Positions 2,193-37,331 of a stretch of DNA of 64,000 bases are shown in pieces (the stretch's first letter is position 1; every line of letters starts with the position of its first letter). The stretch covers positions 1,230-65,229 of the forward strand of contig CAZGEO010000002.1 in assembly GCA_964525295.1 (NCBI GenBank), written 5' to 3'. Source of the stretch: an uncultured Candidatus Saccharibacteria bacterium. Its GTDB lineage: Bacteria > Patescibacteriota > Dojkabacteria > GCA-002793355. The position numbers and the translations under genes are program-made. Below the pieces are notes generated by a model, which saw only the letters and a program-made list of their open reading frames with translations, was not told the DNA's origin and made no database searches.

Positions 2193-2211
2193 TTTCAGAA
2201 TAGAGCAGAAT

Positions 2212-2799: not shown

Positions 2800-2820
2800 A
2801 AATAAATAGTAATAATTTAA

Positions 2821-15666: not shown

Positions 15667-16635
15667 ATGGAGAAAAACTGCCCGAAAATTATTTTTCAAA
15701 TGAGTGGAATTGTCGCATTGCTTCTGTGCAGCTTTATTGTAAATTTTGCTCCCGTAAATGCTGCCAACTCAAGTTTGGGCGTTTCCCCTTCGGAAATAAA
15801 GAACGAATATTTGGTTCGTGGCGCGAAATATACAGAAGTAATAACTATTTCGCGCACAGATGCATCTGCCGAAGCGAAGATTCGATTTATTGTTGATGAT
15901 TCAACCATAGAAGATTGGATAGTTTTCGCAGATGGTGCCCAATTGCAGATGGCAAAAGGAGTGCATCGTATTGCACAGAGAGTAGAAATTACGATTCCTG
16001 CAAATGCTGCGTATAAGGCCTATGATGGTTCAATTCGTGTCGTTATGGAGGGGCCTTCGGCTGGGCAAGTGAATATACTCCCCGGTGTCAAACTTGATGT
16101 ATCTCTGGCAGTTTCTGATAAAGTGTTCACAAAATTACGCGTTCTATTTATCAAATTTTTACCTTCTGCTCAGGGGCAACCCTATGCTGCAAGTATCAAA
16201 ATTGCAAATGAGGGCAACAGTGAGATAGCCCCCGATAAACTAGTAGTTAAAATATTTGATACAAGTAAGAATTTACTACGCACGATAACAATAAAGGATA
16301 TTCCAAAGGTAAAAGCCTTTACTACTGCAGAAATTCCATTGTTCCTGACCGATAGAGAACCTTTAGGAGAAGGTGAATATCTGACTGAAGTGGCCTTATT
16401 CCAAGGTGAAAACGAAATTTTTTCAGATGTAGCATCATTGGTAGTTTTTATTGGAAAACCAACTGAAATTACGGTATCACCAACCCCAACTGGGGCGACT
16501 TCGGGTACTCTCTCTCTCTTGCAAATAATGACTGGTTTATTAGTATTGATCATTGTATTGTTACTCGCAGGCCTTATTGGTATTTGGTTTGTTTTTGTCA
16601 AAAAGAAAAATAAGGATGATGACGTTCCTAGGTAG
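15667..16635 (+). CDS. Cell-surface protein with N-terminal signal and C-terminal TM anchor (DUF916/DUF3324-like partner of WxL proteins)
   Basis: 322 aa. Signal peptide, Ig-like middle, and a C-terminal hydrophobic helix followed by KKKNKDDD. Its position between two WxL-like proteins mirrors csc/WxL loci. Confidence 0.45.
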   Translation: MEKNCPKIIFQMSGIVALLLCSFIVNFAPVNAANSSLGVSPSEIKNEYLVRGAKYTEVITISRTDASAEAKIRFIVDDSTIEDWIVFADGAQLQMAKGVHRIAQRVEITIPANAAYKAYDGSIRVVMEGPSAGQVNILPGVKLDVSLAVSDKVFTKLRVLFIKFLPSAQGQPYAASIKIANEGNSEIAPDKLVVKIFDTSKNLLRTITIKDIPKVKAFTTAEIPLFLTDREPLGEGEYLTEVALFQGENEIFSDVASLVVFIGKPTEITVSPTPTGATSGTLSLLQIMTGLLVLIIVLLLAGLIGIWFVFVKKKNKDDDVPR

Positions 16636-19600: not shown

Positions 19601-20632
19601 TGGGTCGTATTAAGTGCATCACCAACTCTAGCGAGAATAAACTTTCAAGGGAACACCACAGGTTTACGTAATGGTAATAGCACGATAATTCAAGCACAAA
19701 ATCTCTGGTGGAATAGTGTCAATGGTCCCAATGATACGAGCAGTACCGGCCAGTGTCCACTTAATGTATCAACTGGCGATGCAGTAATCGATACCTCAAC
19801 AAATCCAGTTCTGTATTGCCCATTTGCAGTAACCAAATTTAACGCGAATTCATTGCCATCTGCTGCAGATACCTTGATTGATGGTGGAAATATTGTCGTA
19901 AATTTGACCGAGTCAACGACTACTTCAGTAACCTGCACTACCAATGTTATTGATGCTGATGGTTATACTGATATCGCGGGGGTAAATGCGATTTTATATA
20001 GAACATCACTCGGCGATAGTGGATCGAACAATGACAATTATCGGTACTCAGTTGCCTGTTCTGCAGGTTCTGGAAGTGGCACCTTACGTGCGTATTCATG
20101 CAACTTTACTGTTTGGTTTCATGCAGATCCGACAGATGCCTCTTCAGCAAATTCAGGTGATGATTGGACTTGCAAGGTAAGTCCTTACGATGCAGGTGGG
20201 GTTGGGGTAACTGATACAGATACCATTGAAATGGGATCGGTTATCGGAATTGAAGTCTCTAGTCATATTAATTATGGTAACCTAAACGGTGGCGACAATA
20301 CAGGAAGTACAAATATTACGAGTGCAATAGCTAATTCAGGAAACGTAGCAATCGATATTGAAATGTATGGTCAAGATATGTGTACAGACTTCCCAGCCTG
20401 TGCAGCTGGGGTCATTCCCGTTACTCGTCAGCAATATAATACTAGTTCGTTTAGCTATGGAGCTGGAACAGCATTAACTGCTTCACCAGTATTTATTCCT
20501 CTTAATATTGCAAAATCAACGGCTCATCCACCAAATCTGTCGAGTACACTATATTGGGGGCTAGGTATTCCTGCTGGTGCGCAAATGGGGGCATATACGG
20601 GGCAGAATACTTTTACAGCGTTGTTACATTAA
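16616..20632 (+). CDS. Giant secreted beta-helix repeat protein with a C-terminal WxL-like domain
   Basis: ~1339 aa from the ATG at 16616 (the longer ORF from 16553 overlaps the upstream gene). Signal peptide MMTFLGRLLRKRVVLFLIFL..VSA. Four ~209-aa modules with PbH1-like NxxGI turns. The C-terminus is homologous to that of the 551-aa protein. Confidence 0.7.
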   Translation: MMTFLGRLLRKRVVLFLIFLTFLVPGIEPVSAVNVTGTISTNTTWNTSGTPYVMTGNVTVASGVTLTIDGTAGLVEVRSGGNYRLTVNTGGTLIVTGTSANPVRFTHNTSTSLGAWGGVRVASGGTATVNYARMTYSSTSFMADGGTLVVNDSVLESNTNGLVVASTGNITTARNTFIKNTYPISLEWESTYSFGTGADADILGTDTNKNTYNVLAVGNYDPYGNNCPANVCTISQRTFAGIANIPYQVVPTTYFLDSADDLYIFDAGVIIKVASRLHFRQATRVQFNSSSGNNVIFTSIHDDTVGGDSNNNGTATSPAAGNWYGIVVQSSQAQTYSFCTIKYSIYGIYASAATANVLITDSIFDRNTDAVNATNGATIQTARNTFTRNDFAISVDWEATYNFGAGADVDIIGIGADSNKYNAIGVGNQDATVSDCPANSCVVQKKNFAGITNIPYMQTSTYYYITGNDDTTTIEPGVIIKSTGRMYIRGTSKLVAQGTVGEPIYFTSYRDDSIGGDSNNDSTTTTPAAGNWIGVIFENSVNQTVSNCVVRYAEHGITASGNTGLVTIQDNVFENNSYAVNSYSRAAISTARNTFKKNVFPVSMDWEAQVTFGQGANTDILGSGADKNTYKAISVGAYDNNNTDCIANQCTISQLTFAGISNIDYVLEPFIYYFNSADDVITFDPGVVIKMDGRVQVSNSVVFNFNGTSGSPVYFTSIHDDTIGGDIAENGSATVPARGDWYAWIFLGTTAVSFDNCVVKYGNVSVISGAASAVVYVTDNVFENNIYPVSANNNGVIHTARNVFRKNQAPVSLEWDSTLVPGTDSNADILGTGIDANDFNAIKVGAHDKNATNCPANTCTVSQLTFGGIQNIPYYATNEIVFEGTDDTLVFSPGVIMKFDGGSVTVRSGAKISIAGTSAGRVVFTSARDDSVGGDTNNNGSTNAPAKADWNSLNLQSGANSVAFVEVRYSRDGIYATGGTLSVSDADLTTNTNGMWVVLSASPTLARINFQGNTTGLRNGNSTIIQAQNLWWNSVNGPNDTSSTGQCPLNVSTGDAVIDTSTNPVLYCPFAVTKFNANSLPSAADTLIDGGNIVVNLTESTTTSVTCTTNVIDADGYTDIAGVNAILYRTSLGDSGSNNDNYRYSVACSAGSGSGTLRAYSCNFTVWFHADPTDASSANSGDDWTCKVSPYDAGGVGVTDTDTIEMGSVIGIEVSSHINYGNLNGGDNTGSTNITSAIANSGNVAIDIEMYGQDMCTDFPACAAGVIPVTRQQYNTSSFSYGAGTALTASPVFIPLNIAKSTAHPPNLSSTLYWGLGIPAGAQMGAYTGQNTFTALLH
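17132..19639 (+). repeat. Four in-frame tandem coding repeats of exactly 627 nt (209 aa) inside the giant beta-helix gene
   Basis: Modules begin ARNTFIKN (17132), ARNTFTRN (17759), ARNTFKKN (18386) and ARNVFRKN (19013). ~50% aa identity with a conserved CPAN-C, FAGI-NIPY, FTS-DD-GGD and AAGNW skeleton. Confidence 0.8.
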
Positions 20633-22390: not shown

Positions 22391-22411
22391 CGGAGGGGGA
22401 GGGATTCGAAC
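22391..22411 (+). repeat. attL direct repeat (copy of the tRNA-Ser 3' end)
   Basis: Identical 21-mer to 32978-32998. The flanks diverge on both sides. Confidence 0.75.
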
Positions 22412-22439
22412 ACCCACCAAATTTCGGACTCGTTAATCT

Positions 22440-22453
22440 ATCCTTGCAAGGAT
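22440..22453. repeat. Perfect 14-bp palindrome ATCCTTGCAAGGAT just inside the element left end
   Basis: Self-complementary 14-mer 29 bp from the attL core. Possible recombinase arm site. Confidence 0.4.
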
Positions 22454-22753
22454 TTTACTTGGGCAGGATTACGCACACTTGTCACGAAATTTGCACTTGA
22501 TGTATTCAAAGGTTGTTAGGCGCGTTCCCGCTCTGCGTCGAATGCAAATTGTTGCATTCTCCTTGAGTTTCTCATCCCAACATAATAAATGTAGGTGTCT
22601 GCCACTGTTTACACAGTACCAAACACCTACACGGAAGTTCTGTTCGCTTGTTCGCAACCTCATTATATTTGATGGACAGGCACTTTTCAATGTTTTAGGA
22701 ATGATGAAATCAACCAATGAAAGAAATAATACTTTATTAATTAACCTGCATAT

Positions 22754-25027
22754 CTAATCGTCATTTGAAAAGTGGTTTTCTTTCGGATTTAAAAATAAAT
22801 CTACAATCTTCTTAGACTCTTCATCCAAATTTTTTAATTTTAAAACTTTTTCCTTTACGACATCATATTTGTAGAACACCTCGAAGTTCTTTTTTATAAA
22901 GTTTTGAGTCTTTTTATAGCTATAATCAGACATTCCCTGACTTCTTGTTGTAGAGATAAATGCTTTAATGATGTACTTTAAATTCTTTGGCTTTTCTGCA
23001 TTTTCAAGAAATTTGGATAAGTCGGTATTGTCTCCCCATTCTTTCCATGTAAACAAAATATAAGCTAAATCTTTATGCTCAATCAATATATTAAACTTTG
23101 CCTTATTGAGCTTTTCTACACATAGCGTTTGTAATTCGGTTATATTTGATGTATCTAAAATGAATTTTGATTCGTCTTTTGCTTCATCTTTCTTTGGAGT
23201 CTCTAAGGAAACAAATTTTATTGGGCCGATAATACCTTGTGATAGTGGGATAAGCTTACTAATAAGTTCATTGTTTGCCTTTTTGTCCTTTATGTTTTTA
23301 AGAAGATGAAAAATAACTCGTTGTAAATCCATGTCTATTCCAAAATCCCACATTGAATCTTCGGTTTCTGGCAAAATATCGGAGACATTAAATAATGCAA
23401 GAATTATATTTTCGTAGTTTGTAGAAGGTATTAATTCCGTATCCGAAGTGTATGAAAGCATCTTTTTAAGTAGCTTTCTAATTCTCTTACTTTCTATATA
23501 TTTTCTAATTTCTGTTTCAAAGTCCTTTTGAATATTTGCTAGACTAAAAATGTATTCAATCTCAAATTGAGAAATTTCCCCTTCATCTCCACCTGGTATA
23601 AGAGTGAAATATTGATCAAAACAACTTGTAGCACATATTCTAAGTGTTTTTTCCCATACCTCTTGCCATTCATGTCCATACGAAGTATTGCCAAACCCAT
23701 CTACATTACCTTTAACCTGAGGGAATAACTCAAAAATAATTTTTCTAGTGCTCTCTCTTTGTTCAAGAGAAACTTTATCAAAGGCAGACGATATTTTGCT
23801 TTTTCGTTCCTCTCTTGGTTTTGTACTTGAGCCAATATAATTTGATTCTGTGGTGGTAAACAAGATTTTTTCATATTTTAGAAAATTGTAAAACTCAGGA
23901 GCAAATATTCGTACAGATTCTAATGCAAAGAAATCAACAGGATTAATTTCTAAGATATTTTTATTAATTAATTGTTTTATTGAGAACTCTAACCCATTGA
24001 TAAACCTTTTAATATCCCTAATGGTTACAAAATAGTCTTTAAATCCTGAATTATAAATATTTGCCCAGTAGGAGTCTTTGTCGAAGTAAATAGATGATTT
24101 TTCAGGTAACAACGACAAGATTCTATCTAATTCCGAAAACAAATATTGATGTATTTTAGATTGGTGTCTTAATGGAAGATCTAAATTTACCTGTACTATT
24201 TTTTCTAAGTACTCTTTTCCATTCACCTTTAAATAGTCTCCAATACTATTTTCGATTATATCCTTATCGTAAGCTAACAAATAGATTGTATTAGGAAAGT
24301 TAGCATTTGCTCTAATAAGTCTGAATACTTCATTCATTTCAGCTGGAGTCAATCTATCAATGTCGTCAATTACAATAAGTAATTTCTTATCTCGGTTGTT
24401 TAAGTTCTTTTCAATAGAACTCTTTACTTCATCAATTGAATAACTTTTATCACTGACCTTTGCTTCAAAGTATGCAGATACTTTCCTGAAAAATGTCTTG
24501 ATAATCCCTAAAATTAGCAATATAAGTCCTACAATGAATAGTATGAGCGATACTTCTTTTGAATATGGGTTTAAGGATGAGATGATTCTATCTGCTGTAA
24601 TTCCAATAATTCCTATGAGGATTACAACAACTTGTTGAAAGCTTATGGTGTCCTCAACGGTGGGAATGATCTCTAAAAAACTAGCATATTTTTTAAACTG
24701 CTTTGCGAGTGCTAAATCTTTTTCATTTTCATTTTTTGACTCGAGTTGAGTAGAAATTTCGTTGAAAAACTTATTTGTAATATCTGCATTAGAGAATTCC
24801 CAAGGATTAAAGCTAATAAGCGTTGGCGTTTTTTCCTCTTGAAATAAAGATTCTTTAACAAGGTTGATTATTGAGGTTTTACCAGTACCCCATTTACCAT
24901 TTAATGATATAACTAGGCTTTCTTTGTTTTTCCATTCCTTTATTGCGTTTGATAGTGAATCGGAAAAATGACTTCTATTTAGTATGTCGTCATTTCTTTT
25001 TTCGATTGGTTGATCTGGTTTAAACAT
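22754..25027 (-). CDS. KAP-family P-loop NTPase
   Basis: 757 aa. N-terminal Walker A SLNGKWGTGKTS, an internal pair of TM helices interrupting the NTPase (a KAP hallmark), Walker B IVIDDID. Confidence 0.8.
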   Translation of the reverse strand: MFKPDQPIEKRNDDILNRSHFSDSLSNAIKEWKNKESLVISLNGKWGTGKTSIINLVKESLFQEEKTPTLISFNPWEFSNADITNKFFNEISTQLESKNENEKDLALAKQFKKYASFLEIIPTVEDTISFQQVVVILIGIIGITADRIISSLNPYSKEVSLILFIVGLILLILGIIKTFFRKVSAYFEAKVSDKSYSIDEVKSSIEKNLNNRDKKLLIVIDDIDRLTPAEMNEVFRLIRANANFPNTIYLLAYDKDIIENSIGDYLKVNGKEYLEKIVQVNLDLPLRHQSKIHQYLFSELDRILSLLPEKSSIYFDKDSYWANIYNSGFKDYFVTIRDIKRFINGLEFSIKQLINKNILEINPVDFFALESVRIFAPEFYNFLKYEKILFTTTESNYIGSSTKPREERKSKISSAFDKVSLEQRESTRKIIFELFPQVKGNVDGFGNTSYGHEWQEVWEKTLRICATSCFDQYFTLIPGGDEGEISQFEIEYIFSLANIQKDFETEIRKYIESKRIRKLLKKMLSYTSDTELIPSTNYENIILALFNVSDILPETEDSMWDFGIDMDLQRVIFHLLKNIKDKKANNELISKLIPLSQGIIGPIKFVSLETPKKDEAKDESKFILDTSNITELQTLCVEKLNKAKFNILIEHKDLAYILFTWKEWGDNTDLSKFLENAEKPKNLKYIIKAFISTTRSQGMSDYSYKKTQNFIKKNFEVFYKYDVVKEKVLKLKNLDEESKKIVDLFLNPKENHFSNDD

Positions 25028-25029
25028 AC

Positions 25030-26553
25030 TTAATCAAAATTCTTAATTGAATCTTCGTAAAGCCTATCAAATAAATTGCTGGTATGCATTATGTACTCTG
25101 GAATCTGAAACTTTCCATTTGTTAATTTTTCATATAAATCCTTTATTGTTTTATCTAAACTTTCTGAATAAATAAACGGGATTTTTTTAATATAATTCGC
25201 AGAGTTATTTGCAGTATGGTTAATGACCTTCAATAATTGAGTACAAATCTCCGAGTTAAGAAAAGTAAGTAAATATAAATAATGTTCATCATTCTCAGGA
25301 AAAATCCCCACGATTGATTGATCAAAAAGCCTATCTTTCAATTCAAACGCAAATAGTCTCGAGCCTTTTACCATTGGGATACCAATCCCTTTTTTAAAAT
25401 AATACTTTGAGTTTTGGAATCTAGCTTTTTTATCTTTTCTATAATAATCAACACTTGCTTTATTCCAATTTATAAACCACTCATTTTCTTTGACAAGATG
25501 TGATCCTCCACCTTTAAGGATTGGAATATATGAATTCTTGCCATTGATTCCATTAATATCAATTTCTTGATTGAACGATATTAAGTCTTTATCTACGGGA
25601 ATTAAGTCTTTTGCCCCTTTAACCGTATTTGAGATGGGCTTTAAATGCAATTTATTATCACCTGAATAAAAACCTGTGACACAATTAGCAATATCTCCAA
25701 CTTTTGTATGATAATTAGTAATGAAACTTCTAACTTTTTCATCACCTCCTATATAAAAAGACAAAGAGTCTGTTGTTTTTATATCATTTTGAAGTACAGA
25801 ATAATTACTATCTCCTTGATTCGAAGCTGTTTTTAACAAATTAATATCTTCGACTTTTGTTGAAACTGAAACGATTTTAATTCTATCTTCTTCAGTATTT
25901 GGTCTTTTAACTAAAGTGATTATACATAGGTTTGAATAACCAAAACTTACACCCGGAAAAAACTTTGATGGAATAAGTAGTATTTCTTCAATTGTTGTAC
26001 TGAATAACAATATTTTCCTTATCTTCTTATGGAGATTTAATGCTAGAAATGTATCTGGCACTATAAATACAAGCCTGCCATTCTCTCGAAGTAATGAGAT
26101 GCAACGTTCAAGGAATAGTGTATATGTTTCTTTGACATATCCACCATACTTTTTTTTGAGATTTGCTTTCTTTTTTTCATCTTGCCAAGCACCATACGGT
26201 GGATTTCCAATTATTTTTGTAAAGTATCCACCACTATTCGCATATAAGTCAAAAGTCAAATCAAACAAAGTATCAACTTCACGAATTTTTATACCTTTAT
26301 CTTGAAACTTTCTTTTCAGTTCTTTAACTGCTTTGGGGTTTAAATCAACTGCTTCGATGAATTCTGATGAAAAATCTTGAGATAATATTTTCTCAATAAA
26401 TAATCCATCTCCAGCACAAGGCTCTAGAATAACATCCTTTTTTACTAATTTCAGTTTGTCTACCATATAATCCAAGATAGGATCTGCATCCGTATAATAC
26501 GAACAGTATTCATATCTCTTTCTTGTTTTTCCGTTAATTATGTTGTCTACCAT
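25030..26553 (-). CDS. N6-adenine DNA methyltransferase (gamma-class, NPPY) with a C-terminal target-recognition region
   Basis: 507 aa. Motif I VILEPCAGDGLF, motif IV IIGNPPYG. Overlaps the upstream gene by 7 nt. Confidence 0.8.
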   Translation of the reverse strand: MVDNIINGKTRKRYEYCSYYTDADPILDYMVDKLKLVKKDVILEPCAGDGLFIEKILSQDFSSEFIEAVDLNPKAVKELKRKFQDKGIKIREVDTLFDLTFDLYANSGGYFTKIIGNPPYGAWQDEKKKANLKKKYGGYVKETYTLFLERCISLLRENGRLVFIVPDTFLALNLHKKIRKILLFSTTIEEILLIPSKFFPGVSFGYSNLCIITLVKRPNTEEDRIKIVSVSTKVEDINLLKTASNQGDSNYSVLQNDIKTTDSLSFYIGGDEKVRSFITNYHTKVGDIANCVTGFYSGDNKLHLKPISNTVKGAKDLIPVDKDLISFNQEIDINGINGKNSYIPILKGGGSHLVKENEWFINWNKASVDYYRKDKKARFQNSKYYFKKGIGIPMVKGSRLFAFELKDRLFDQSIVGIFPENDEHYLYLLTFLNSEICTQLLKVINHTANNSANYIKKIPFIYSESLDKTIKDLYEKLTNGKFQIPEYIMHTSNLFDRLYEDSIKNFD

Positions 26554-27476
26554 TCCAAATATTGCAGTAAGCTATTCTTTTTTAAATGGGAATACATTAC
26601 TGAGTCGAAATCCTTTTCCCAGTCAATAAAAGTATTCATCCAATTTGCTAAATTAAAGCCAGTTACTTCCTCAATTTTCTTGTATGTTTCTGTCCCACAA
26701 TAAACCGTCCAGAGCCCTGATCTTTTTAATGTTTGTAGATAATGGTTATTGTTTTCTTCACTTGCTCGTACAAATAGTAAACATTGATGACCTTCTTCAA
26801 GTATTTTGTATATACTTGCGACTAAAAGGAGTCGATTAGTATTGCCTTTTTCGTTTGAGCTAAAGCCACTCTTAAAGTCAACGACAAATTTATCCTGTCC
26901 GTTTTCAAAATGTAAATCAAGCTCAAGGCTTATTTCGCCAGATGTGACTAATGTCCAAACTTTTTGATAATATTTTCTTAATTCCGCCTTTTCTTCCTCA
27001 GTGATATTTAATGAGTCGATAAAATCATTTAGTTCTGCTGACAGTTTTATGCGGACATCATTGAAAAGTGGAGGAATAATATACTTAACATTCTGATTAA
27101 TTGGATTTTCCCAACATAATTGACAAAATGGCTCCCATAGTTCACCTATCCTTCTTGCAAATGTCATGTACTCGTATGGCCATACTTCATTTCGTGATTC
27201 CATCATTACTATGTAGTTTGTATATGTAATCAATAAGACACCTTCTAAAATTGCTTTTGAAGACCAATTCTCAGACTGGGCTTTTTGTTTTAGTGTTTTT
27301 ATTAAATTCTCCTTGCATGAAACTAATTCACTATTAATTGCTGAAGCCCGCAGTTTGTAGTCTTTTTCTCCATAGGTTTGCTTGATTTGAGATAGAAACT
27401 CTCTAGATCTGCTTCTAAAATATTCTAGAAGTTCAGTCTTTTTTGTTCGGATATTATTGTCTATTAGTTCAGACAT
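26547..27476 (-). CDS. Putative restriction endonuclease (PD-(D/E)xK-like) partner of the MTase
   Basis: 309 aa. Candidate ELDLH ... VVDFKSG catalytic residues. Sits between the C-protein gene and the MTase gene in a translationally coupled operon. Confidence 0.4.
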   Translation of the reverse strand: MSELIDNNIRTKKTELLEYFRSRSREFLSQIKQTYGEKDYKLRASAINSELVSCKENLIKTLKQKAQSENWSSKAILEGVLLITYTNYIVMMESRNEVWPYEYMTFARRIGELWEPFCQLCWENPINQNVKYIIPPLFNDVRIKLSAELNDFIDSLNITEEEKAELRKYYQKVWTLVTSGEISLELDLHFENGQDKFVVDFKSGFSSNEKGNTNRLLLVASIYKILEEGHQCLLFVRASEENNNHYLQTLKRSGLWTVYCGTETYKKIEEVTGFNLANWMNTFIDWEKDFDSVMYSHLKKNSLLQYLEW

Positions 27477-27477
27477 T

Positions 27478-27699
27478 TTATTTATATAATAATTTATCTA
27501 TTGTTACTTCCAAAGCTTCTGCAACTTTCATTATAAAGTTGATTGATGGCTTTTTTATTACCTCAGTTTCAACTTTTACTAGAGTAGTGAGTGGAATATC
27601 AGCCTTTCTTGCTAACGCTTCCTGCGACAAATCTTTTTCCTTTCGCCACTTCTTTATTTGCTCTGCAATATTAACTTTTTGCGTATGTCGTGTTTCCAT
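27478..27699 (-). CDS. XRE-family HTH regulator (R-M controller C-protein-like)
   Basis: 73 aa. LSQEALARKADIPLTTLVKVE helix-turn-helix. First gene of the R-M operon. Confidence 0.75.
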   Translation of the reverse strand: METRHTQKVNIAEQIKKWRKEKDLSQEALARKADIPLTTLVKVETEVIKKPSINFIMKVAEALEVTIDKLLYK

Positions 27700-29146: not shown

Positions 29147-29935
29147 ATGATAAAAGCAAATAACCAAGACAAAGTAATATTTCGAGAGTTAGAAAAGCAA
29201 TACGGTTTTGCTCAAATTAGCCATTTAATAACGGAAGATAGATTGCTTTCAGACCTTGCAGTCAGAGTTTATTTAGCTTTGCTCAAATATGCCATGAATA
29301 AAAACTACTGCTTTCCAGGACAAGACAGACTATCCGAAACAATCGGCAAAAGCAGAAGCTCAGTATTTAGAGGATTAAATGAGCTTAGAAATCGTGGGCT
29401 TGTGTCTTGGAAAACACGAGGACTTAACAAAACGAATATGTATATCCTTGAGCCAATTTCAGAAATATATGCTGAAAAACTCAATACTATTGCGGATGTG
29501 TCAGAATTGCAACATCCAGATGTTGCAAAATTGACACATCAAGGTGAGTCAGATTTGACCTACAAAGAATATAAAGTTAAAGAAGAAAAGATTAAAAATA
29601 ATAAGTTAACGTTAAACGATGATTTTAAATCTTATTTAGAGGAAGCGATAGAACTAGCTAAAGAACTAAACGACCTCAAAAGCATCAAATATTATCAAAT
29701 GCTAATCAGCCAAAAGAACAAAGGCATTGTTAATTCAGAAGATATTACAGATTCTCTTATTTTTACACGCACTCAAATTCGTACAGCTCAAGTTGATGGA
29801 ACAAAACCTCTCAGCAATCCTGCTGGACTATTTGTAAAAACACTTAAAGATTTACAGGAGAAACGAAAACGCAAAGAGCAATTGGCAAAACTTGAAACTA
29901 TGAGGAATAAATTCTTAGAAAAATCTAAATTTTAA
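29147..29935 (+). CDS. HTH_36-type replication initiator / replisome organiser-like protein
   Basis: 262 aa. FPGQDRLSETIGKSRSSVFRGLNELRNRGLV matches the winged-HTH of plasmid/phage Rep proteins. Charged coiled-coil C-terminus. Confidence 0.5.
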   Translation: MIKANNQDKVIFRELEKQYGFAQISHLITEDRLLSDLAVRVYLALLKYAMNKNYCFPGQDRLSETIGKSRSSVFRGLNELRNRGLVSWKTRGLNKTNMYILEPISEIYAEKLNTIADVSELQHPDVAKLTHQGESDLTYKEYKVKEEKIKNNKLTLNDDFKSYLEEAIELAKELNDLKSIKYYQMLISQKNKGIVNSEDITDSLIFTRTQIRTAQVDGTKPLSNPAGLFVKTLKDLQEKRKRKEQLAKLETMRNKFLEKSKF

Positions 29936-30067
29936 CTATTAAAAACCATGATTGATAAAGTGTTGAATGTACCTCACCGAAAAGGGCTTTTGGAGGGATC
30001 CAGTTTCTCACCATGTTGTCAAATACGAAAGTTACGGTCTGTCGGACTTTTACAGAACCTCGTGACT

Positions 30068-30115
30068 GATTGGGTGGAAGACGAAACTGCGTTTCCTAAT
30101 GTCTTCCACCCAATC
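30068..30115. repeat. 15-bp perfect inverted repeat with an 18-nt loop containing a nested 5-bp hairpin (candidate replication origin or regulatory stem-loop)
   Basis: GATTGGGTGGAAGAC (30068-30082) and GTCTTCCACCCAATC (30101-30115). The loop holds GAAAC-TGC-GTTTC. Flanked by GAGGGA/TCCCTC. Locally GC-rich. Confidence 0.7.
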
Positions 30116-30219
30116 ACTCCCTCGACAACGATTAATGTGTGTGAGTTACACATTAAGTTCTGTGAAAAGTGTGTGATCGACAGACCTTACTTTATTTAAT
30201 TTTTTAGTTATTTATTTTT

Positions 30220-31197
30220 ATGAAAGACAGTTATATAGCAAAGTACAATGATATTGCGATATTAGGGATAGTTAATAGTTTTAGATTTTTACCGCTTCAA
30301 GTTTTGACTAAGATTTTGATTGAGAAGAAGTTATACGGAAGTTATCAAGCTGTTAGTAGAACAGTAAACAGATTAAGGGAACATGGATTAATTAGAACGA
30401 CTTACTATACCAACAATGCCAAAATTATATTTTTATCTCGTCTTGGGGCAAAACAGCTCGCAACTGGTACAGGTGTGAGTGAAGATTCCATTAATTGCCC
30501 TGAAAGGCTAACAGGTGTGAATTTCTTCGCATTGGAACATACAGTTAAAGTTGCAAATCTGTATTTATTACTGCTTCGAGAGTGTCAAAAACACAATTTA
30601 ATCCTCAGAAAATTTACAGGTGACCATTTTACACGGTACGAATATCAGTTTCGCAATACTTCATCGGGTAGGATTATCAAGCGATATGTAATGCCTGATG
30701 CAGAAGTTGAAATACAAATAGAAAATATCGTTTTTTCATTTTGGATTGAATACGACAGAGGAACGGAATATTCAAAAGATGTTGCGGTCAAATACATGAA
30801 ATACTTTGAATATTTTGATCAACTCAAACAACAAAAAGTTTATACTTATCCAAATATCCTCTTTATCACCGAAAGCACAAAAGAAAGACTTAAAAACCTT
30901 GTTGTATTTGAGCCTGAATATACAGGTAATTGGAGTTGGAGTCATGCCAGTATGAACTTCAAGAATGTTGTTTTAAAGGGTGTAACAATGGCAGATGATA
31001 TTCGCAGTATGACGGATTATGTTGTAGATGATTTTTTGCAAAAGGATAGATTTCTTTTTACCGACTATGCGACCTTTGAGCAAAAGGGATTGAGTACAGA
31101 GTTTCTCAATATGAACGCCGAAAACTTCGATTTACTTAATTTCATAAAAAAGGAAGTCGAAAAATTAACAGAAAATAAAAACGATGGTAGAATATAA
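30220..31197 (+). CDS. Replication-relaxation family-like protein (N-terminal wHTH)
   Basis: 325 aa. Its N-terminus resembles the winged-helix of plasmid replication-relaxation proteins. Confidence 0.35.
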   Translation: MKDSYIAKYNDIAILGIVNSFRFLPLQVLTKILIEKKLYGSYQAVSRTVNRLREHGLIRTTYYTNNAKIIFLSRLGAKQLATGTGVSEDSINCPERLTGVNFFALEHTVKVANLYLLLLRECQKHNLILRKFTGDHFTRYEYQFRNTSSGRIIKRYVMPDAEVEIQIENIVFSFWIEYDRGTEYSKDVAVKYMKYFEYFDQLKQQKVYTYPNILFITESTKERLKNLVVFEPEYTGNWSWSHASMNFKNVVLKGVTMADDIRSMTDYVVDDFLQKDRFLFTDYATFEQKGLSTEFLNMNAENFDLLNFIKKEVEKLTENKNDGRI

Positions 31198-31220
31198 GCG
31201 ACCACAACTTAAATATTTGC

Positions 31221-31493
31221 ATGACCCAAAAGCTATTAAAGGGTTATTTGATAGTAATAAGGGCTATTCGTACAATTTCATGCAAATGGAGTTGTGGTCA
31301 ACGAGTAGCCCTTTTTTGTTATGTAAATATGATGATTAGTAAAACATTAAATAAGAATATTAAACACGAACAAACAACCTATTCTGAGGAGGAAATAAGG
31401 CGGTTAGCCAAATATTTTGAGATATTAATAAAAATAAATGACCGTATTAAATTAGTTAAACAACCAAAATGCAAAACCAAGAAAATACAATAA
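31221..31493 (+). CDS. small hypothetical protein (possible recombination directionality factor)
   Basis: 90 aa basic protein immediately upstream of, and overlapping, the integrase start. Confidence 0.2.
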   Translation: MTQKLLKGYLIVIRAIRTISCKWSCGQRVALFCYVNMMISKTLNKNIKHEQTTYSEEEIRRLAKYFEILIKINDRIKLVKQPKCKTKKIQ

Positions 31494-33007
31494 AATCTGC
31501 GGTTATTTATACTCGTGTATCTACCGAAGACCAAGCTAAAAAGGACTTATCACTTCCTTACCAACTATCCCAATGCCAAGAATTTGCTAAACGAGAGGGC
31601 TATACAGTAATGGAACATTTTGAAGACCCTGGAAAATCAGGGAGAAATATTCAAAGACCATCGCTTCAATCAATGCTTCATTACATCACTGATAACAAGA
31701 TCAATGCAGTAATTGTTTACAAACAAGATAGGCTTTCAAGAAGTCAGGCTGACTTTTGGGGAATGATTGATTTATTTAAAAGAATAGGTACAGAATTCAT
31801 CTCAATTACTGAAAGATTCGGAAATACAGCAGAGGGAACTATCTCAATGGGTGTAATGTCATCATTTGCTCAATACTATTGTGATTATTTATCAGGCAAT
31901 GTTAAAAAAGGTCAAAAGCAAAAAGTTAATATTGGTTGGTGGCCAACATTTGCACCTTTAGGATATGAAAATTTTGGTGAAAAGAGTTTCAAGAAAATTA
32001 GACCAGTAAAAGAAATTGCAGAACAAGTTGTTCATGCCTTTAAATTGTTTGCAACTGGTCAATATTCAATTACAGAGCTTACAGAAACAATGATAAAACG
32101 AGGTATGACTTCAAATGGAGGAAACCCAATATCAAGAACAGCAATAGGTAGAATGTTAAGAAATCCTATCTATTATGGAAGCTTCTATTGGAACGGAGAG
32201 TTATACAAAGGAGAACATGAGCCAATACTCGACAAAGAACTTTTCGATAGCGTACAGGCGGTTCTAGACCTCAACAGAACGAAAGGTACAAGGGATTGTA
32301 AACACAATTTCATGTTAAGAGGCTATCTTTACTGTAAATGTGGTTCAATGCTTACAGGTGAGATTAAAACCAAGAATTACAAAAACGGAAATTCTCAACA
32401 ATTTGCATATTATGGTTGTAAGAGCAGAAAAAAATCAAAAGATTGCTCAAGAACATATATTGCTATGAATAAAATCGAAGATATGGTTACGGATTTATTC
32501 AAAAGTGTGCAGTTTTCTGATGAATTCAAAAAGATAGTATTGTCCGAAGCTAAAAAGATTATTTCTGAGATACGAGATACTGAAAGCGATGAAGAAAAGA
32601 TAATCAAGCAAAGGATAGCTAGACTTAATCTAAGAATGAAGAACGCAGAAGACGACCGCTTTGACCGAGTAATTACAAGAGAGCATTTCACACAAGTTTA
32701 TGAAAGGATAAAGGCAGAACTTGATGAAGCTAACATTGAGTTGTCAAAACTCAATAAAGACCATACAAAAACTATTAAAGTACTTGATGAACTACTTGCT
32801 TTTACTGATGATATTCAAAAATCGTATATTGAGGCTGATAATGAGCTTAAAAGAAGATATCTGCAAATCTTCTTTGAGAAAATAATTGTGAATGATGGAC
32901 AAATTGTTGATGTGATATACACACCTGCAATTTCTCAACTTTTAGAAATTGATCGAGTCCGAATAACGAATAACTGGCGGAGGGGGAGGGATTCGAACCC
33001 ACGATAG
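31469..33007 (+). CDS. Large serine recombinase (integrase)
   Basis: 512 aa. Resolvase catalytic domain AVIYTRVSTEDQ, recombinase domain, Cys-rich zinc ribbon (CKCGS..YYGCKSRKKSKDC) and coiled-coil. The last ~11 codons are encoded antisense to tRNA-Ser. Confidence 0.85.
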   Translation: MQNQENTIKSAVIYTRVSTEDQAKKDLSLPYQLSQCQEFAKREGYTVMEHFEDPGKSGRNIQRPSLQSMLHYITDNKINAVIVYKQDRLSRSQADFWGMIDLFKRIGTEFISITERFGNTAEGTISMGVMSSFAQYYCDYLSGNVKKGQKQKVNIGWWPTFAPLGYENFGEKSFKKIRPVKEIAEQVVHAFKLFATGQYSITELTETMIKRGMTSNGGNPISRTAIGRMLRNPIYYGSFYWNGELYKGEHEPILDKELFDSVQAVLDLNRTKGTRDCKHNFMLRGYLYCKCGSMLTGEIKTKNYKNGNSQQFAYYGCKSRKKSKDCSRTYIAMNKIEDMVTDLFKSVQFSDEFKKIVLSEAKKIISEIRDTESDEEKIIKQRIARLNLRMKNAEDDRFDRVITREHFTQVYERIKAELDEANIELSKLNKDHTKTIKVLDELLAFTDDIQKSYIEADNELKRRYLQIFFEKIIVNDGQIVDVIYTPAISQLLEIDRVRITNNWRRGRDSNPR

Positions 33008-33064
33008 GCATACACCTATATCAGTTTTCAAGACTGACGCCATCAACCACTCGGCCACCCCTCC
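32975..33064 (-). tRNA. tRNA-Ser (anticodon TGA), with encoded CCA
   Basis: 90-nt type II tRNA. GGAGGGG acceptor, 3-bp D stem, anticodon loop CTTGAAA, long variable arm (ATAGG/CCTAT), T loop TTCGAAT. The 3' 21 nt form the element attR core. Confidence 0.85.
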
Positions 33065-33129: not shown

Positions 33130-34041
33130 TCAATTCAATGCTAGTTGCATTACAGGAATAATAACCGATCTTTCGGTTGATTGCTTAATTGTAGAGGAAG
33201 CTGATCCAGCATAGAAAAGTCTACCAGGAGCTATGCAAAAGGCATCGAACGTGACATTATCGGTAGGCGTTGGGTGAAAGTAATTATCGAGGGTTGAGAT
33301 TCTTGCATTGTGTAATGGAAGAGCCCAGGTAGATGAATTGGTAACCATTGAAAGTGGTGCCGATACGCCATTGATTGTACTAGCTACGTGCGCTAAAACG
33401 ATACATTCGCTATTGTTTGGTGCGCCGGAGATATTTCCTGAAACGGCTATCTTCTCCTGTGTAGCGACGAGAGTTTTTGGTAGTTGCAAAGCCTTTGTTA
33501 TTGGGGATGCTCCAACAAAGTAATAAATGTTCTCTGGTTTCAGATTTTTTGCGGTGGCGCTATGCAAATATGATGGAGAAATAACTCCACGGTCATCAGT
33601 TACCTTGTTTGTTAAAGCATTTTGTGAATTTCCGTGAGATAAAAGTGTTGGTTGTGGAGCTTCAGTCAGCCAGATGAGGGTAAACGACGAATCTGAAATA
33701 TTTGATAACAGTCCTGTTGTTGTTAGTTCAGTGTAAAAAGAGGGAGTCTGTTGTTTTGTAACTGTCGAGGGGGTCATTGTTTCAATCGGAATATATGGGG
33801 CAGGTGCTTGTAAAAGTGATTCAGCAACAGAAGAAAGTACACTAACTTGATCTATCTGCTCGGGTGTAGGAGAGGCCTCAACAATTGGAGTGTTTGGATA
33901 ATAAATTGTTGCTGATGCGTTACGCGTGTGACCATTTTTGATATAAGGGATAATTACCAAAAGAGCAAGAAAAGTTACAGAAACAACAAATATACCAATT
34001 GGAAAAACGATTGAGAATTTTTCGGGCAATTTCATACTCAC
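33130..34041 (-). CDS. Secreted hypothetical protein (N-terminal signal anchor), last gene of the T4SS-like module
   Basis: 303 aa. N-terminal hydrophobic helix, then a Ser/Thr/Pro-rich extracytoplasmic region. Confidence 0.45.
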   Translation of the reverse strand: MSMKLPEKFSIVFPIGIFVVSVTFLALLVIIPYIKNGHTRNASATIYYPNTPIVEASPTPEQIDQVSVLSSVAESLLQAPAPYIPIETMTPSTVTKQQTPSFYTELTTTGLLSNISDSSFTLIWLTEAPQPTLLSHGNSQNALTNKVTDDRGVISPSYLHSATAKNLKPENIYYFVGASPITKALQLPKTLVATQEKIAVSGNISGAPNNSECIVLAHVASTINGVSAPLSMVTNSSTWALPLHNARISTLDNYFHPTPTDNVTFDAFCIAPGRLFYAGSASSTIKQSTERSVIIPVMQLALN

Positions 34042-35906
34042 TCTGAACCTGGCTCAAATACTAAAGATCCCTCGCTGATATCTTCATCTCGGATTTCAAA
34101 ATTTTCAGCTTTCATCTTCGCTAATTCTTTCGGGTTTGAGGTAATTAATCTATGTTCAGCTCTACTTGCAATGATTGAGATTCCAACATGACTCTTTCCT
34201 GCGAAGAAAAGACCTTCACCGACCTTTGTACTGAGAACGAAACTGCGTTCACCTGAAGAGAGATTAAAAGTTCTTTCAATAATATCGATTGCAGCAGGGC
34301 TTTGCTTTAATAGAACTTGAATACTAGAGTTAGTCACAACCGCTTTGCCATATCTTGACGTAAGAAATTCGTCAACGTCTTGGCTGATTGTAGTTAACCC
34401 AAGATAATATTTTCTTCCACGTTTTGCAATACCGTACAGGAACTTGGCTGAATCTTCATACTGCATCATTGTCCAGGCTTCGTCTACAATGAGTATTCGG
34501 GGGCGAATGTCTTCGCGAACTCGGGTCCAGATGAAATCAAGAATCATGTACATTGCAATTGGGCGAAGGTCATCCTGCAAGTCACGAATGCTAAAGACGG
34601 TAAATTTGTTTTTAATATCTATGTTAGTACTCTGATTGAATACTCCGGCAGCGCTTCCGAACACGTACTTTTCAAGTCTAGCGGAAAGTGCTCGAGCTTC
34701 AGGCTCTGCCATTCCTTTGAGGATTTTATACAAGTCTTCAAGTAAAGGAGCAGGATTTTTCCATGTTTCAGGATCGTTGTTGATTCCTTTTTCGTTATAG
34801 GTAAGCATGAATGCTTTATCGAGAATAGAAACTTCGACATTGGTTAATTCACCGAGAAGGAGTTTAATTAATGTATGCAGTGACAAAACTTTGTCGCGCA
34901 GTACATTGCGAACACCTTCTTTAGACTCTTTTAGGAACTCGAACGGATTGATTTTTGATCCTTCATCTTGTGAGAAAGTAATGAATTCTCCATCGACAGC
35001 GCGTGCCAATTTCTCGTATTCATTTTCAGGGTCGATAATAATAATTTGTGTGCCTGTAAGAAGATAGCGTAGCGCCTCGAGTTTAACGAAGTAACTTTTA
35101 CCAGCACCAGATGTCGCAAATACGACCTCGTTTAAGTTGGGCATACTAAAACGATCAAATACTACCATGCTATTGTTGTGCATGTTGACTCCGTAAAGTA
35201 TTCCTTTATCCATGGTAAGATCAGACGTCACAAATGGAAAAGTCATGGCAATTGAAGTGGTGTCCATGTTACGTACACGGTAGATTTTGTCGAGCGCGTA
35301 GGGAAGTGTTGAGTCAAAACCTTCATCCATCTTGAGGGTAAGAGGTACAGCTTCAAGGCCAACTGCCTTTAAGGTTGATACGACATTTTTTGACATTGTT
35401 TCAAGCTGCTCGAGATTGTCCGAGTTCAATCGAATGTACATCCCCATATTGAAGAATTTCTCTTTTCCTGAGGCAACGTTGTCGATTAATTCTTGAGCAT
35501 CTTGGTAAGCGACCTTGCTCTTTGGGTCGAGAACGACACCCTTTTCGTATTGAGTAGACAAGGTCGCCTCGAGTTCTGCAATTTTCTTTTTAAGTTTGTC
35601 GATAACTTCGTCAGAATCGACCAAGTAGTAAAAAGTGCTGATCGCAAGGGAAGATTCGAAGTTAATGAGTGGTGAGAGCCAAGTTGAACGCACAACACGT
35701 GGGAAGTTCACCACCATGAGAATTCGATAATACCGATTGTTAACCTGCACGTGATTAAAATCTACCTCGTAATATTGAGGTGCTAGTAGATCAGCAATAG
35801 TGAATTCATCTGAAGCAAACTGTTGTTCCGCCTGTTCAATTTGAATCTGTTCAGAAGTCTTCTGTTCAGGTAAAAATGGAATTTTGAATGGGAGTTTGAA
35901 TGCCAT
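34038..35906 (-). CDS. VirB4/TrbE-family type IV secretion ATPase (Gram-positive PrgJ/TcpF-like)
   Basis: 622 aa. N-terminal YYRILMVVNFP motif, Walker A FATSGAGKSY, Walker B ILIVDEAW, and a downstream LTTISQ motif. Confidence 0.75.
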   Translation of the reverse strand: MAFKLPFKIPFLPEQKTSEQIQIEQAEQQFASDEFTIADLLAPQYYEVDFNHVQVNNRYYRILMVVNFPRVVRSTWLSPLINFESSLAISTFYYLVDSDEVIDKLKKKIAELEATLSTQYEKGVVLDPKSKVAYQDAQELIDNVASGKEKFFNMGMYIRLNSDNLEQLETMSKNVVSTLKAVGLEAVPLTLKMDEGFDSTLPYALDKIYRVRNMDTTSIAMTFPFVTSDLTMDKGILYGVNMHNNSMVVFDRFSMPNLNEVVFATSGAGKSYFVKLEALRYLLTGTQIIIIDPENEYEKLARAVDGEFITFSQDEGSKINPFEFLKESKEGVRNVLRDKVLSLHTLIKLLLGELTNVEVSILDKAFMLTYNEKGINNDPETWKNPAPLLEDLYKILKGMAEPEARALSARLEKYVFGSAAGVFNQSTNIDIKNKFTVFSIRDLQDDLRPIAMYMILDFIWTRVREDIRPRILIVDEAWTMMQYEDSAKFLYGIAKRGRKYYLGLTTISQDVDEFLTSRYGKAVVTNSSIQVLLKQSPAAIDIIERTFNLSSGERSFVLSTKVGEGLFFAGKSHVGISIIASRAEHRLITSNPKELAKMKAENFEIRDEDISEGSLVFEPGSE

Positions 35907-35907
35907 A

Positions 35908-36540
35908 TTATACGTAAATTTGAGGTAATCCTTCGAGCTGAATCGAAGAGTTTGGATTATACACAGAGTACAAGTATTTCGCTATTTCTGGGCTAGTCAT
36001 CTGTTCGCCGTCTAACCCCATTCCTTTAAGCATTTTTATTACGTGATATTTCTTAGGATAGAGGTAGTTGATAGCATTCTCAATCATTTTCTTCTTATCC
36101 TCAAATGGTGTTGCACTGGTGACGGTAGTCATTGTTCTAAATGGAATCACGATCATGAATTTTTTGTCGAGAATTTCTTTATTGGTGATAAGGTTTCGAA
36201 TGAATTGTTTATAGATAGTGAATTGGCGTTTTAAGCCAGGGCTGAGATCTGGAGTATCAAGTTCATCAAGATAATCGGCATATTTACTAATGTTGATCTT
36301 CCTTGTTTCAATTAAAATTTGTAGCTGAAAATCTAACGAATTGACCATATTTCCGAAAGAAGCTATTTTGATATCCTGTTCTTCTTCTGAAAGCAGATCG
36401 AAGTTAACAGAAGAGGTCATGATCAATAAACAAACCGTTCCATTTCTCGTTATTAATAAATCATTGATGATATCTGCTGCTTCAACTATGCCTTGAGTGC
36501 CAATTGCAATTGGGCTCGATCCTATGCCAGTTTCGCTCAT
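35908..36540 (-). CDS. T4SS-associated hypothetical protein (translationally coupled to virB4: TAATATG)
   Basis: 210 aa. Its stop is 1 nt from the VirB4 start. No TM. Confidence 0.4.
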   Translation of the reverse strand: MSETGIGSSPIAIGTQGIVEAADIINDLLITRNGTVCLLIMTSSVNFDLLSEEEQDIKIASFGNMVNSLDFQLQILIETRKINISKYADYLDELDTPDLSPGLKRQFTIYKQFIRNLITNKEILDKKFMIVIPFRTMTTVTSATPFEDKKKMIENAINYLYPKKYHVIKMLKGMGLDGEQMTSPEIAKYLYSVYNPNSSIQLEGLPQIYV

Positions 36541-37331
36541 ACTGTAATTGGTGACAAATTAATTAATGGATAGGTATTTCCCTCAAGCAGAATACGTACT
36601 CGGGGAAAATTAAGTGCATCAGATTGAAAATCGATTTCATAGACACCGTTGTTAAACCCTTGATTGAAGTAAATAATACCATCTGCATTGCTACGAAGTG
36701 CTGCTACAACGGCATTTGACTGGTCTTTCATATAAGCAACGACTCCTTCGATTGGTAGATTGTCGTCGATAATACGAAAAACAAGTGTATTTGGAATCTT
36801 GGGAATATTTGTCATCATATCGGCATAGTCGGTGATATTTTGCGATGTAATCTCGAGAGTTGGGATAATTTGTGGTTGGTCTTGAATTTGCGAAATCATT
36901 CCAGGAGATGCGACAGAACCGGCATCGCGCATTAATTTCTTGTATTCATCTGCATTCATGAAATATGCAGCCAGATAGTTTGGCAATACAGCAGGTTTTG
37001 TTGAGAAAAATTGCTCCTTTTTAATAACGTCAGTACCTTTCTTCCAAACTCGGCGAAGTGGAGTGTTGAGATTGCGAACGTATGCAGTGAGCCATTCTTC
37101 CATCGTTCTCTTTTGGTATGAACCAAGACCGAGTATAATTCCTACAAGCACGACAATAGGAATAAGTATCCAGGCAAAAAAACTTGGGAGTATTTCGACC
37201 TTATTTAATTGAAATAAGGCGAATGCAATAGCACCTGCTGCTGCAACATAAACGAATTGACGCAAACTTAAGCCTGCAAACAGCTTAAATTCATACTCCA
37301 TAATATTTTGTGGAATTGCGTGTTCGTACAT
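36537..37331 (-). CDS. Membrane protein, VirB3/PrgI-like candidate (two N-terminal TM helices)
   Basis: 264 aa with two adjacent hydrophobic helices near the N-terminus. Overlaps the downstream gene by 4 nt. Confidence 0.35.
   Translation of the reverse strand: MYEHAIPQNIMEYEFKLFAGLSLRQFVYVAAAGAIAFALFQLNKVEILPSFFAWILIPIVVLVGIILGLGSYQKRTMEEWLTAYVRNLNTPLRRVWKKGTDVIKKEQFFSTKPAVLPNYLAAYFMNADEYKKLMRDAGSVASPGMISQIQDQPQIIPTLEITSQNITDYADMMTNIPKIPNTLVFRIIDDNLPIEGVVAYMKDQSNAVVAALRSNADGIIYFNQGFNNGVYEIDFQSDALNFPRVRILLEGNTYPLINLSPITV

Follow-up and report, generated by a model that had tools for sequence, protein, structure and literature searches.

We analysed a segment of non-coding DNA in a 64,000-nucleotide (nt) stretch (the window) of contig CAZGEO010000002.1, assembly GCA_964525295.1, from an uncultured Candidatus Saccharibacteria bacterium. 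The segment (29936-30219) holds a large inverted repeat and lies between a gene for an HTH_36 winged-helix protein upstream and a Replic_Relax gene downstream. A preliminary description of the window had named the same two flanking genes, which we confirmed, and had placed an origin of replication or of transfer between them. Here we describe the segment as a folded element, compare it with its copies elsewhere, and consider what it does; an origin of transfer (oriT) is the reading that we favour. The parts of the element in the window are listed below.

29948..30199, + strand: open reading frame (ORF) of 83 amino acids (aa) over the element, not a gene (codon-position pattern, frameshifts, no Pfam match)
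29948..30027, + strand: 5' leader, mostly conserved in the window-type subfamily, with one variable stretch of ~20 nt
30028..30193: whole folded domain, ~166 nt, candidate oriT core; minimum-free-energy (MFE) structure as RNA and as DNA, on both strands
30036..30058: 5' strand of closing stem P1, GGTCTGTCG-GACTTTTACAGAAC, pairing with 30157-30186
30064..30119: hairpin P2, the inverted repeat of the preliminary description; base TGATTGGGTG (30067-30076) / CACCCAATCA (30107-30116)
30107..30126, + strand: 20-nt core CACCCAATCA-CTCCCTCGAC, the most constrained sequence of the element
30132..30156: hairpin P3, TTAATGTGTG / TACACATTAA, with a conserved TGTGT within 30136-30143 (MFE folds)
30157..30186: 3' strand of P1, GTTCTGTGAAAAGT-(GTGTGAT bulge)-CGACAGACC (MFE folds)

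A folded, non-coding domain

The arms of the inverted repeat (30064-30082 and 30101-30119) are 19 nt long, 95% complementary and separated by an 18-nt loop, within which GAAAC-TGC-GTTTC forms a mini-hairpin (30083-30095). The preliminary description had recorded a perfect 15-bp repeat with this mini-hairpin in its loop. Our reading of the sequence agrees and extends the perfect stretch to 16 bp, TGATTGGGTGGAAGAC at 30067-30082 against GTCTTCCACCCAATCA at 30101-30116. The segment had also been called GC-rich against AT-rich surroundings, and this was borne out: the GC fraction is 0.45 over 30000-30149 and ~0.26-0.36 for most flanking intervals of the sequence.

The folding energy of 29936-30219 was compared with that of 200 shuffled sequences. 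Folded as RNA, the + strand reached -86.6 kcal/mol (z -4.9) and the - strand -88.2 kcal/mol (z -6.6); with DNA parameters, the values were -51.0 kcal/mol (z -6.7) and -51.5 kcal/mol (z -7.1), respectively. The observed energy was reached by 0/200 shuffles in all four strand and parameter cases, so the structure pointed to in the preliminary description is far beyond chance (z -4.9 to -7.1). The MFE structure is one domain (30028-30193), in which the closing stem P1 encloses the hairpins P2 and P3. Beyond P1, 30028-30032 pair additionally with 30189-30193. The outer stem comprises 9+13 bp and the inner hairpin 16-19 bp. The CTCCCT part of the core lies 3' of P2 and is unpaired or partly paired. 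The core is present in a single copy in the window, where 0 copies are expected with up to three mismatches.

One feature of the preliminary description was not upheld. Its outer GAGGGA/TCCCTC pair lies outside the conserved fold. Close relatives have TATGAA or AGAAGT in place of the GAGGGA half (29994-29999), whereas the TCCCTC half is invariant; we rejected this pair. In the leader, two 8-nt repeat-like units, ATGATTGA (29948-29955) and GTGTTGAA (29960-29967), can be read 12 nt apart, and a third, ATGTTGTCAA, stands at 30013-30022. These degenerate units (29948-30022) hint, weakly, at relaxase-binding repeats. The repeat search of the window returned no repeat family at 29948-30022 and no iteron array.

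The 83-aa ORF had been judged probably non-coding, and the comparison with relatives bears this out. Variable columns were distributed over its three codon positions as 9/10/7 among close relatives and 47/46/44 in the wider set, with no excess at the third position. Its frame is shifted by a 2-nt deletion in two related loci (L044 and L045). In another (L053), the frame lacks a start codon and meets an early stop, and the ORF is absent from both L053 and L055. No Pfam match to the ORF was found. Relatives were gathered through the relaxase protein. Among them are islands that show 74-88% nucleotide identity to the window in the HTH_36 and relaxase genes; in these islands, the ~170-nt domain is 96-98% identical. 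Within the inverted repeat, the base of P2 is fixed in the relatives and its tip covaries. Strong selection acts here on the nucleic acid rather than on an encoded protein.

The islands that carry these copies are mosaics. When the window (29147-33007) was compared with L036, L042, L044, L188 and L211, identity to the window changed from one side of the fold to the other and again at the recombinase gene. The values for the HTH_36, relaxase and recombinase genes were 87%, 76% and 84% in L211, 88%, 87% and 67% in L036, and 75%, 79% and 88% in L042. Such discordance suggests that islands have recombined with each other, perhaps within the conserved element.

Distribution and covariation of the copies

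A scan of species-representative genomes with the core pattern found 36 members, all in Patescibacteria, where by our own estimate ~0.02 were expected. The genomes are labelled Dojkabacteria, Saccharibacteria, Nomurabacteria or 'Patescibacteria group', and several hold two or three copies of the element. The same scan of viral contigs gave one member, and JGI metagenome contigs gave 13 true members among the loci listed. Anaerobic digesters and groundwater are among the sources of samples with these islands (for example 3300010351 and SRR27197510). With a first metagenome pattern made up of just the two 10-nt arms, heptamer repeats (GATTGGGT-type, probably cyanobacterial) dominated the matches. 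Most of the TGATTGGGTG-N-CACCCAATCA matches in metagenomes (L056-L175) are unrelated arrays of a heptamer, GATTGGG/TGATTGG, in inverted orientation. When viral contigs were scanned with a 16-mer, 35 matches to a single arm turned up without a palindrome partner, which we set aside as chance, and the protein-based scan of these contigs gave no match. Neither blastn of the domain against plasmids (PLSDB) and phages nor tblastn of the relaxase against plasmids returned a match.

The 20-nt core, CACCCAATCACTCCCTCGAC, is identical in ~50 distinct copies. The loci gathered by way of the relaxase protein likewise have it without change, apart from one substitution in L214. The base of P2, TGATTGGGTG ... 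CACCCAATCA, is fixed in all copies found independently of the pattern except L214, in which the 5' arm of P2 has three substitutions versus one in the 20-mer. The 3' strand of P2 and its tail therefore appear to be under tighter constraint than the 5' arm. The tip of P2 covaries (GAAGAC/GTCTTC, GAAGGC/GCCTTC, CAGGCT/AGCCTG), and in some copies it is swapped for a short tip of 15-17 nt with compensatory changes, such as GACTCC-TTC-GGACTC. In an alignment of 17 sequences, TGTGT is conserved in or near the loop of P3.

All 25 representative copies (25/25) fold with the same architecture, including a long closing stem whose sequence is wholly different between subfamilies. For 12 of the 18 clusters of flanking sequence, at most 1/200 shuffles reached the observed complementarity between the flanks (z -3.1 to -8.7). 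The consensus of one subfamily, A6, is a four-way junction in which 97.4% of cells are paired. Both sides of a pair have changed in 11/48 pairs of A6, compared with 5.3 in shuffles (0/500 reached the observed number) and 0-2 in slid controls, and the helices P3 and P4 are among those that covary. As judged from these comparisons of sequence, the structure is real, functional and under selection.

A candidate origin of transfer and its alternatives

The element is flanked in the window by two genes on its own strand.

29147..29935, + strand: HTH_36 winged-helix 'Rep-like' gene, 262 aa (HTH_36 E 5.7e-12)
30220..31197, + strand: gene of a MOBC-family relaxase (Replic_Relax, PD-(D/E)XK), 325 aa (PF13814 39.8 bits versus a cutoff of 25.3)

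PF13814 represents the MOBC relaxase superfamily (PMC5357655), and its members have a PD-(D/E)XK nuclease fold (PMC5714925; PMC6736028). The function given for the family rests on two cited papers, one of which concerns the relaxation of CloDF13 by its mobilisation proteins (MobC). MOBC relaxases combine a winged helix at the N terminus with a PD-(D/E)XK-type core in which acidic positions ('DEE' motif) are conserved and a Tyr is essential. Residues E106, H107, K110, D160, E177, Y178, D179 and K191 of the window's relaxase are invariant. The AF2 model of the 325-aa protein (pLDDT 89.8) has an N-terminal winged helix and gives weak fold matches to the nucleases FokI and AddAB. When the alignment of the relaxase was compared by hhalign with the relaxase of plasmid pAM373, only the winged helix was aligned. 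We predict that the 325-aa relaxase acts on the element.

The placement of the element relative to this gene is regular. The fold of the window stops 27 nt short of the PF13814 gene. Of the 37 loci that the pattern found (36 from genomes and one viral), 19 have a core that precedes a same-strand MOBC gene by ~100-230 nt, and the same placement was seen in 12/12 of the protein-retrieved relatives examined. Furthermore, 14 loci have the gene of a ~865-aa ATPase that ends ~110-125 nt upstream of the core, which gives the order ATPase, element, MOBC. This ATPase matches TrwB_AAD_bind at 21.6 bits versus a cutoff of 20.5, together with DUF87, TraG-D_C and TraD Walker regions, and is borderline coupling-protein-like by these matches. 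Searches of the PDB by phmmer with the relaxase and with the ATPase returned noise only. In L070 (2258-2293), L208 (5960-5980) and L181 (5606-5626), tandem repeats of 11 nt (ATGATGAAACT/ATGGTGAAACT) stand ~100 nt upstream of the core, directly past the HTH_36 gene. A protein might bind to them, which would make them the 'bind' site of a relaxase or iterons. In L214, TGGGTG occurs 5 times beside the fold versus 1.2 expected.

The comparison with known origins that the preliminary description had suggested was made with pAM373, which like pAD1 is a pheromone plasmid of Enterococcus faecalis; it is typed as MOBC, and its relaxase scores 27.1 bits with the PF13814 model. In the plasmid, a repeat separates the coupling-protein gene from the PF13814 gene, the same order as that of the element in the 14 Patescibacteria loci. 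This repeat region is what the literature describes as the oriT of pAD1 and pAM373 (oriT2 of pAD1). The repeat of pAM373 is a two-tier inverted repeat of 142 bp, with an outer stem of 18 bp and an inner stem of 25 bp, both perfect; our element is ~166 nt. Both follow a plan of outer stem, inner stem and loop, with a mini-hairpin in the terminal loop, and both have near-perfect Watson-Crick pairing. In addition, 6-7 direct repeats with a 12-bp period adjoin the inverted repeat of pAM373, and some relatives of our element also have repeats. Reportedly (Francia & Clewell 2002), pAD1 and pAM373 have homologous large repeats, specificity comes from the direct repeats, and the nick falls inside the large repeat. 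A constant core in variable surroundings would match this pattern. For TraX, the MOBC relaxase of pAD1, binding to 5 direct repeats at a distance of 70-120 bp from nic has been reported (PMC12857230). The element has no sequence similarity to the oriT of pAD1 or pAM373, and the conserved 20-nt core and the extra hairpins P3 and P4 are found in our element only. Moreover, it is carried by small integrative islands with a large serine recombinase, whereas pAD1 and pAM373 are conjugative plasmids, and unlike them half of its copies have no relaxase gene nearby.

On balance, we consider that the element is probably the MOBC-type oriT of an integrative mobilizable island of ~10.6 kb in tRNA-Ser. 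We favour this reading because the downstream gene is MOBC, the position of the element relative to it is fixed and the layout mirrors the oriT region of pAM373. It builds on the observed fold, covariation, extreme conservation and gene neighbourhood, and on the parallel with pAM373. The preliminary description, which gave 'dso/sso or oriT' (dso and sso being double-strand and single-strand origins), is best supported in its last alternative; its headline, a replication origin, is less likely. According to the model, the serine recombinase would excise the island, and the MOBC-type relaxase, a predicted PD-(D/E)XK nuclease with an N-terminal winged helix, would recognise hairpin P2 and nick one strand in or beside CACCCAATCA-CTCCCTCGAC. 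The core (30107-30126) is thus the predicted region of recognition and nicking. The nicked strand would be passed to a type IV secretion system (T4SS) channel, for which host VirB4/PrgI genes 1 kb away are candidates. The multi-stem fold would form on the single strand and serve termination, re-ligation and possibly complementary-strand priming. A role of the same site in relaxase-driven rolling-circle replication of the excised island or in complementary-strand priming may be compatible with an oriT.

The copies without a relaxase gene bear on this reading in two ways. Eleven of these 18 loci have a serine recombinase 0.5-2.5 kb downstream, and several of these eleven are minimal islands of ~3.5 kb in various tRNA genes, with genes for a cI-like repressor and a RepO-like winged-helix protein besides the element and the recombinase; L114 is a similar island in a tmRNA gene. 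Four genomes (JAKPPS01, CAZRRH01, JBDRHZ01 and CAZWRA01) have both a relaxase-less copy and a MOBC-bearing copy with an identical core. This fits mobilisation in trans, in which co-resident islands would mobilise the relaxase-less ones; a host factor at a single-strand or replication origin would account equally well for the unchanged core. Islands with an oriT and no relaxase ('minimal hitchers') have been described (bioRxiv 10.64898/2026.01.13.699239; PMC11389934). Our islands are like them in being small integrase islands with a putative oriT, no relaxase, and co-resident relaxase-bearing relatives that share the core. The described ones are mainly from Proteobacteria and Bacillota and have known oriT families, whereas here the oriT is predicted and the hosts are Patescibacteria.

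Several points weigh against an oriT. The evidence is comparative throughout. No MOBC gene was detectable within the sequence examined for 18 of the 37 pattern-found loci, and a replication origin would suit the ~3.5-kb minimal islands equally well. The core stays constant while the MOBC proteins diverge to 30-40% identity, which a host factor would explain more easily. No plasmid in PLSDB is similar to the element in sequence, and the island of the window is without a coupling-protein gene. Unlike pAM373, the window copy has no clear direct repeats, only the two or three degenerate 8-nt units. In place of the simple two-tier repeat of pAM373, our fold is a three- or four-way junction with covarying helices of 4-6 bp, which appears more RNA-like or sso-like. 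Finally, the gap between the fold and the MOBC start codon is only ~20 nt in several subfamilies; therefore, the fold must also fall in the leader or the promoter of the MOBC mRNA.

These points lead to the question of whether the element functions as RNA. A new structured non-coding RNA of the + strand, either free or as the 5' leader of the relaxase mRNA, in which the conserved nucleotides would bind a protein, take part in catalysis or pair with host RNA, is in our opinion unlikely. The four-way junction with its short covarying helices P3 and P4, the orientation, which is always that of the downstream genes, and A/T-rich -10-like sequences read just upstream of P1 in A6 are in its favour, and the ~20-nt gap makes transcription probable. 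Counted over all copies, G:U pairs number 150 on the + strand versus 74 on the - strand, of ~3,300 predicted pairs; many come from near-duplicate copies. This slight excess suits an RNA of the + strand, but G:U makes up only ~1-4% of pairs and is matched by C:A cells (5 G:U versus 3 C:A cells in A6), and the A:C mismatches seen on the + strand of L214 would read as wobble pairs (G:U) on the - strand. The counts of wobble pairs single out no folded strand. Because wobble pairs are rare and nearly symmetric between the strands, we favour folded DNA over RNA; the near-pure Watson-Crick pairing suggests a DNA palindrome like the repeat of pAM373 and would be unusual for a structured RNA. With Rfam 15, the window matches at gathering score were two tRNAs only. 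Even at E <= 10, there were only chance-level microRNA-hairpin matches in the window, and none over the element in six distant loci. Terminators do not occur consistently after the fold. Where islands lack a relaxase gene, the gene next to the element converges on it from the opposite strand; therefore, the element is not a leader there. It is rather doubtful that the element is a new class of four-way-junction RNA of ~110-170 nt (or a catalytic or host-RNA-targeting RNA) carried by serine-recombinase islands of Patescibacteria, and we give similarly little credit to the corollary that the 20 conserved nucleotides reflect RNA function rather than relaxase recognition.

Single-stranded DNA with a host partner offers another explanation. 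In an sso-like, Frpo-like or rolling-circle origin, host RNA polymerase or primase would recognise the single-strand fold and start complementary-strand synthesis or early transcription. Known examples from rolling-circle plasmids and ICEs (ssoA, ssoT and sso1 of ICEBs1) and from the F plasmid (Frpo, a single-strand promoter) are long, orientation-specific multi-stem folds in non-coding DNA whose conservation is driven by host enzymes, and our element is likewise an imperfect multi-stem non-coding fold on an island with a presumed single-stranded stage. The multi-branched fold of 110-170 nt, with fixed orientation and almost pure Watson-Crick pairing, agrees with such an origin, as does the TGTGT in or near the P3 loop. 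A host partner would also simply explain a core that is constant whatever proteins the element has, relaxase-less islands included. We nevertheless regard this reading as improbable. The scanned ORFs of the island contain no HUH or Rep_trans domain and hence no rolling-circle Rep. The ssoA motifs are RSB and CS-6 (consensus TAGCGT/A), and neither TAGCGT/A nor TAGCG can be read in 30028-30193; a new sso type would still be compatible with this. Furthermore, the constant placement between coupling-protein-like and MOBC genes is a trait of the pAM373 oriT and follows no known sso rule. Since oriT regions often carry sso or single-strand promoter signals, the two functions are compatible.

The headline of the preliminary description, a theta-type double-strand origin for an HTH_36/RepO-like winged-helix initiator, is in our judgment very unlikely. 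A winged-helix Rep-like gene is present in many islands, minimal ones included (HTH_36, faint RepA_N and Phage_rep_O matches; relatives of the window's HTH_36 protein also match RepA_N faintly), an AT-rich stretch follows the fold (30188-30219), and the 11-nt tandem repeats of L070, L208 and L181 could be iterons. However, the Rep-like gene varies in distance and side, being 0.1-3.3 kb upstream or ~0.7-1.3 kb downstream of the element. The Rep-like families are unrelated whereas the core is constant, and initiator sites normally co-vary with their initiator. In addition, an iteron origin that works as duplex DNA has no use for long-range covarying stems, and the window copy has no iteron array.

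Two further roles were considered and dropped. A terminator was rejected given that the consensus scan found none at the fold and that a T-run follows the fold in some subfamilies only. A recombination site (attP) was rejected because the island ends at a 21-nt tRNA repeat, ~2.9 kb (right) and 7.6 kb (left) away, and because a duplex site needs no long-range covarying stems.

The island, its host and the meaning of the element

The remaining features of the island and the secretion genes beyond it are as follows.

22391..22411: left 21-nt direct repeat CGGAGGGGGAGGGATTCGAAC, the island boundary; right copy at 32978-32998 in tRNA-Ser
22754-25027: KAP-family P-loop NTPase, island cargo
25030-26553: Eco57I/TaqI-type N6 methylase, island cargo
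27478-27699: Cro/CI-type HTH_3 repressor gene, in the island
31469..33007, + strand: large serine recombinase (integrase; Resolvase, Recombinase and Zn_ribbon_recom), 3' end overlapping tRNA-Ser
32975-33064, - strand: tRNA-Ser, holding the right repeat copy (tRNA 3' end)
34038-35906, - strand: VirB4-like ATPase, CD1110 family (NF045971 371 bits versus a cutoff of 325; CagE_TrbE_VirB, P-loop_TraG)
36537-37331, - strand: PrgI-family protein (PrgI E 1.4e-12)

The island is thus ~10.6 kb long and integrated in tRNA-Ser. Its cargo (22391-27699) resembles defence genes, and the relative L039 has an NgoPII-type restriction enzyme at this place. A 309-aa ORF that overlaps the methylase gene has no Pfam match and is possibly a nuclease. 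Related recombinase islands (L184, L190, L191, L210, L183, L194, L202 and L198) adjoin varied tRNA genes (Ser-GCU, Ser-GGA, Glu, Leu, Ala, His and Arg/Pro), and L114, from the metagenome scan, lies in tmRNA. The recombinase ORF runs into the RNA gene in L184, L210 and L114, the three inspected besides the window. Because the islands adjoin different RNA genes, the target site varies while the folded element stays constant. In L210, the region directly upstream of the element (917-4165) holds a reverse transcriptase (YVDD), a 132-aa ORF and, on the opposite strand, a repeat-rich ORF of 390 aa; by eye it resembles a diversity-generating retroelement, and L160 probably does likewise.

The host belongs to Patescibacteria (candidate phyla radiation) and probably to Dojkabacteria; the NCBI annotation of one homologue is from a Candidatus Dojkabacteria genome. 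The chromosomal VirB4/PrgI cluster (34038-37331, - strand) begins ~1 kb beyond the tRNA-Ser of the island, and its genes could provide a mating channel. Unannotated ORFs of 210 and 303 aa lie between and beside them. Elsewhere in the window, three large ORFs at 16553-20632, 49062-52355 and 14010-15665 (1359, 1097 and 551 aa) match no Pfam family at E <= 1e-5.

In Patescibacteria, T4SS related to the conjugation machinery of Gram-positive bacteria are widespread and relaxases are rare overall, with MOBC as the commonest class (58/109). This rarity of relaxases near the T4SS led to the suggestion that the systems were co-opted for other functions (PMC12102498). A shared oriT-like element, together with MOBC and coupling-protein-like genes and with VirB4/PrgI 1 kb away, would argue for real conjugation in these episymbiotic bacteria, and a precise 20-nt site and a 325-aa protein are now available for testing conjugative transfer. 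The common core in relaxase-less islands would exemplify a dependency network built on oriT sites beyond the well-studied phyla. Should the element not act as DNA, it would be a new and widespread structured RNA.

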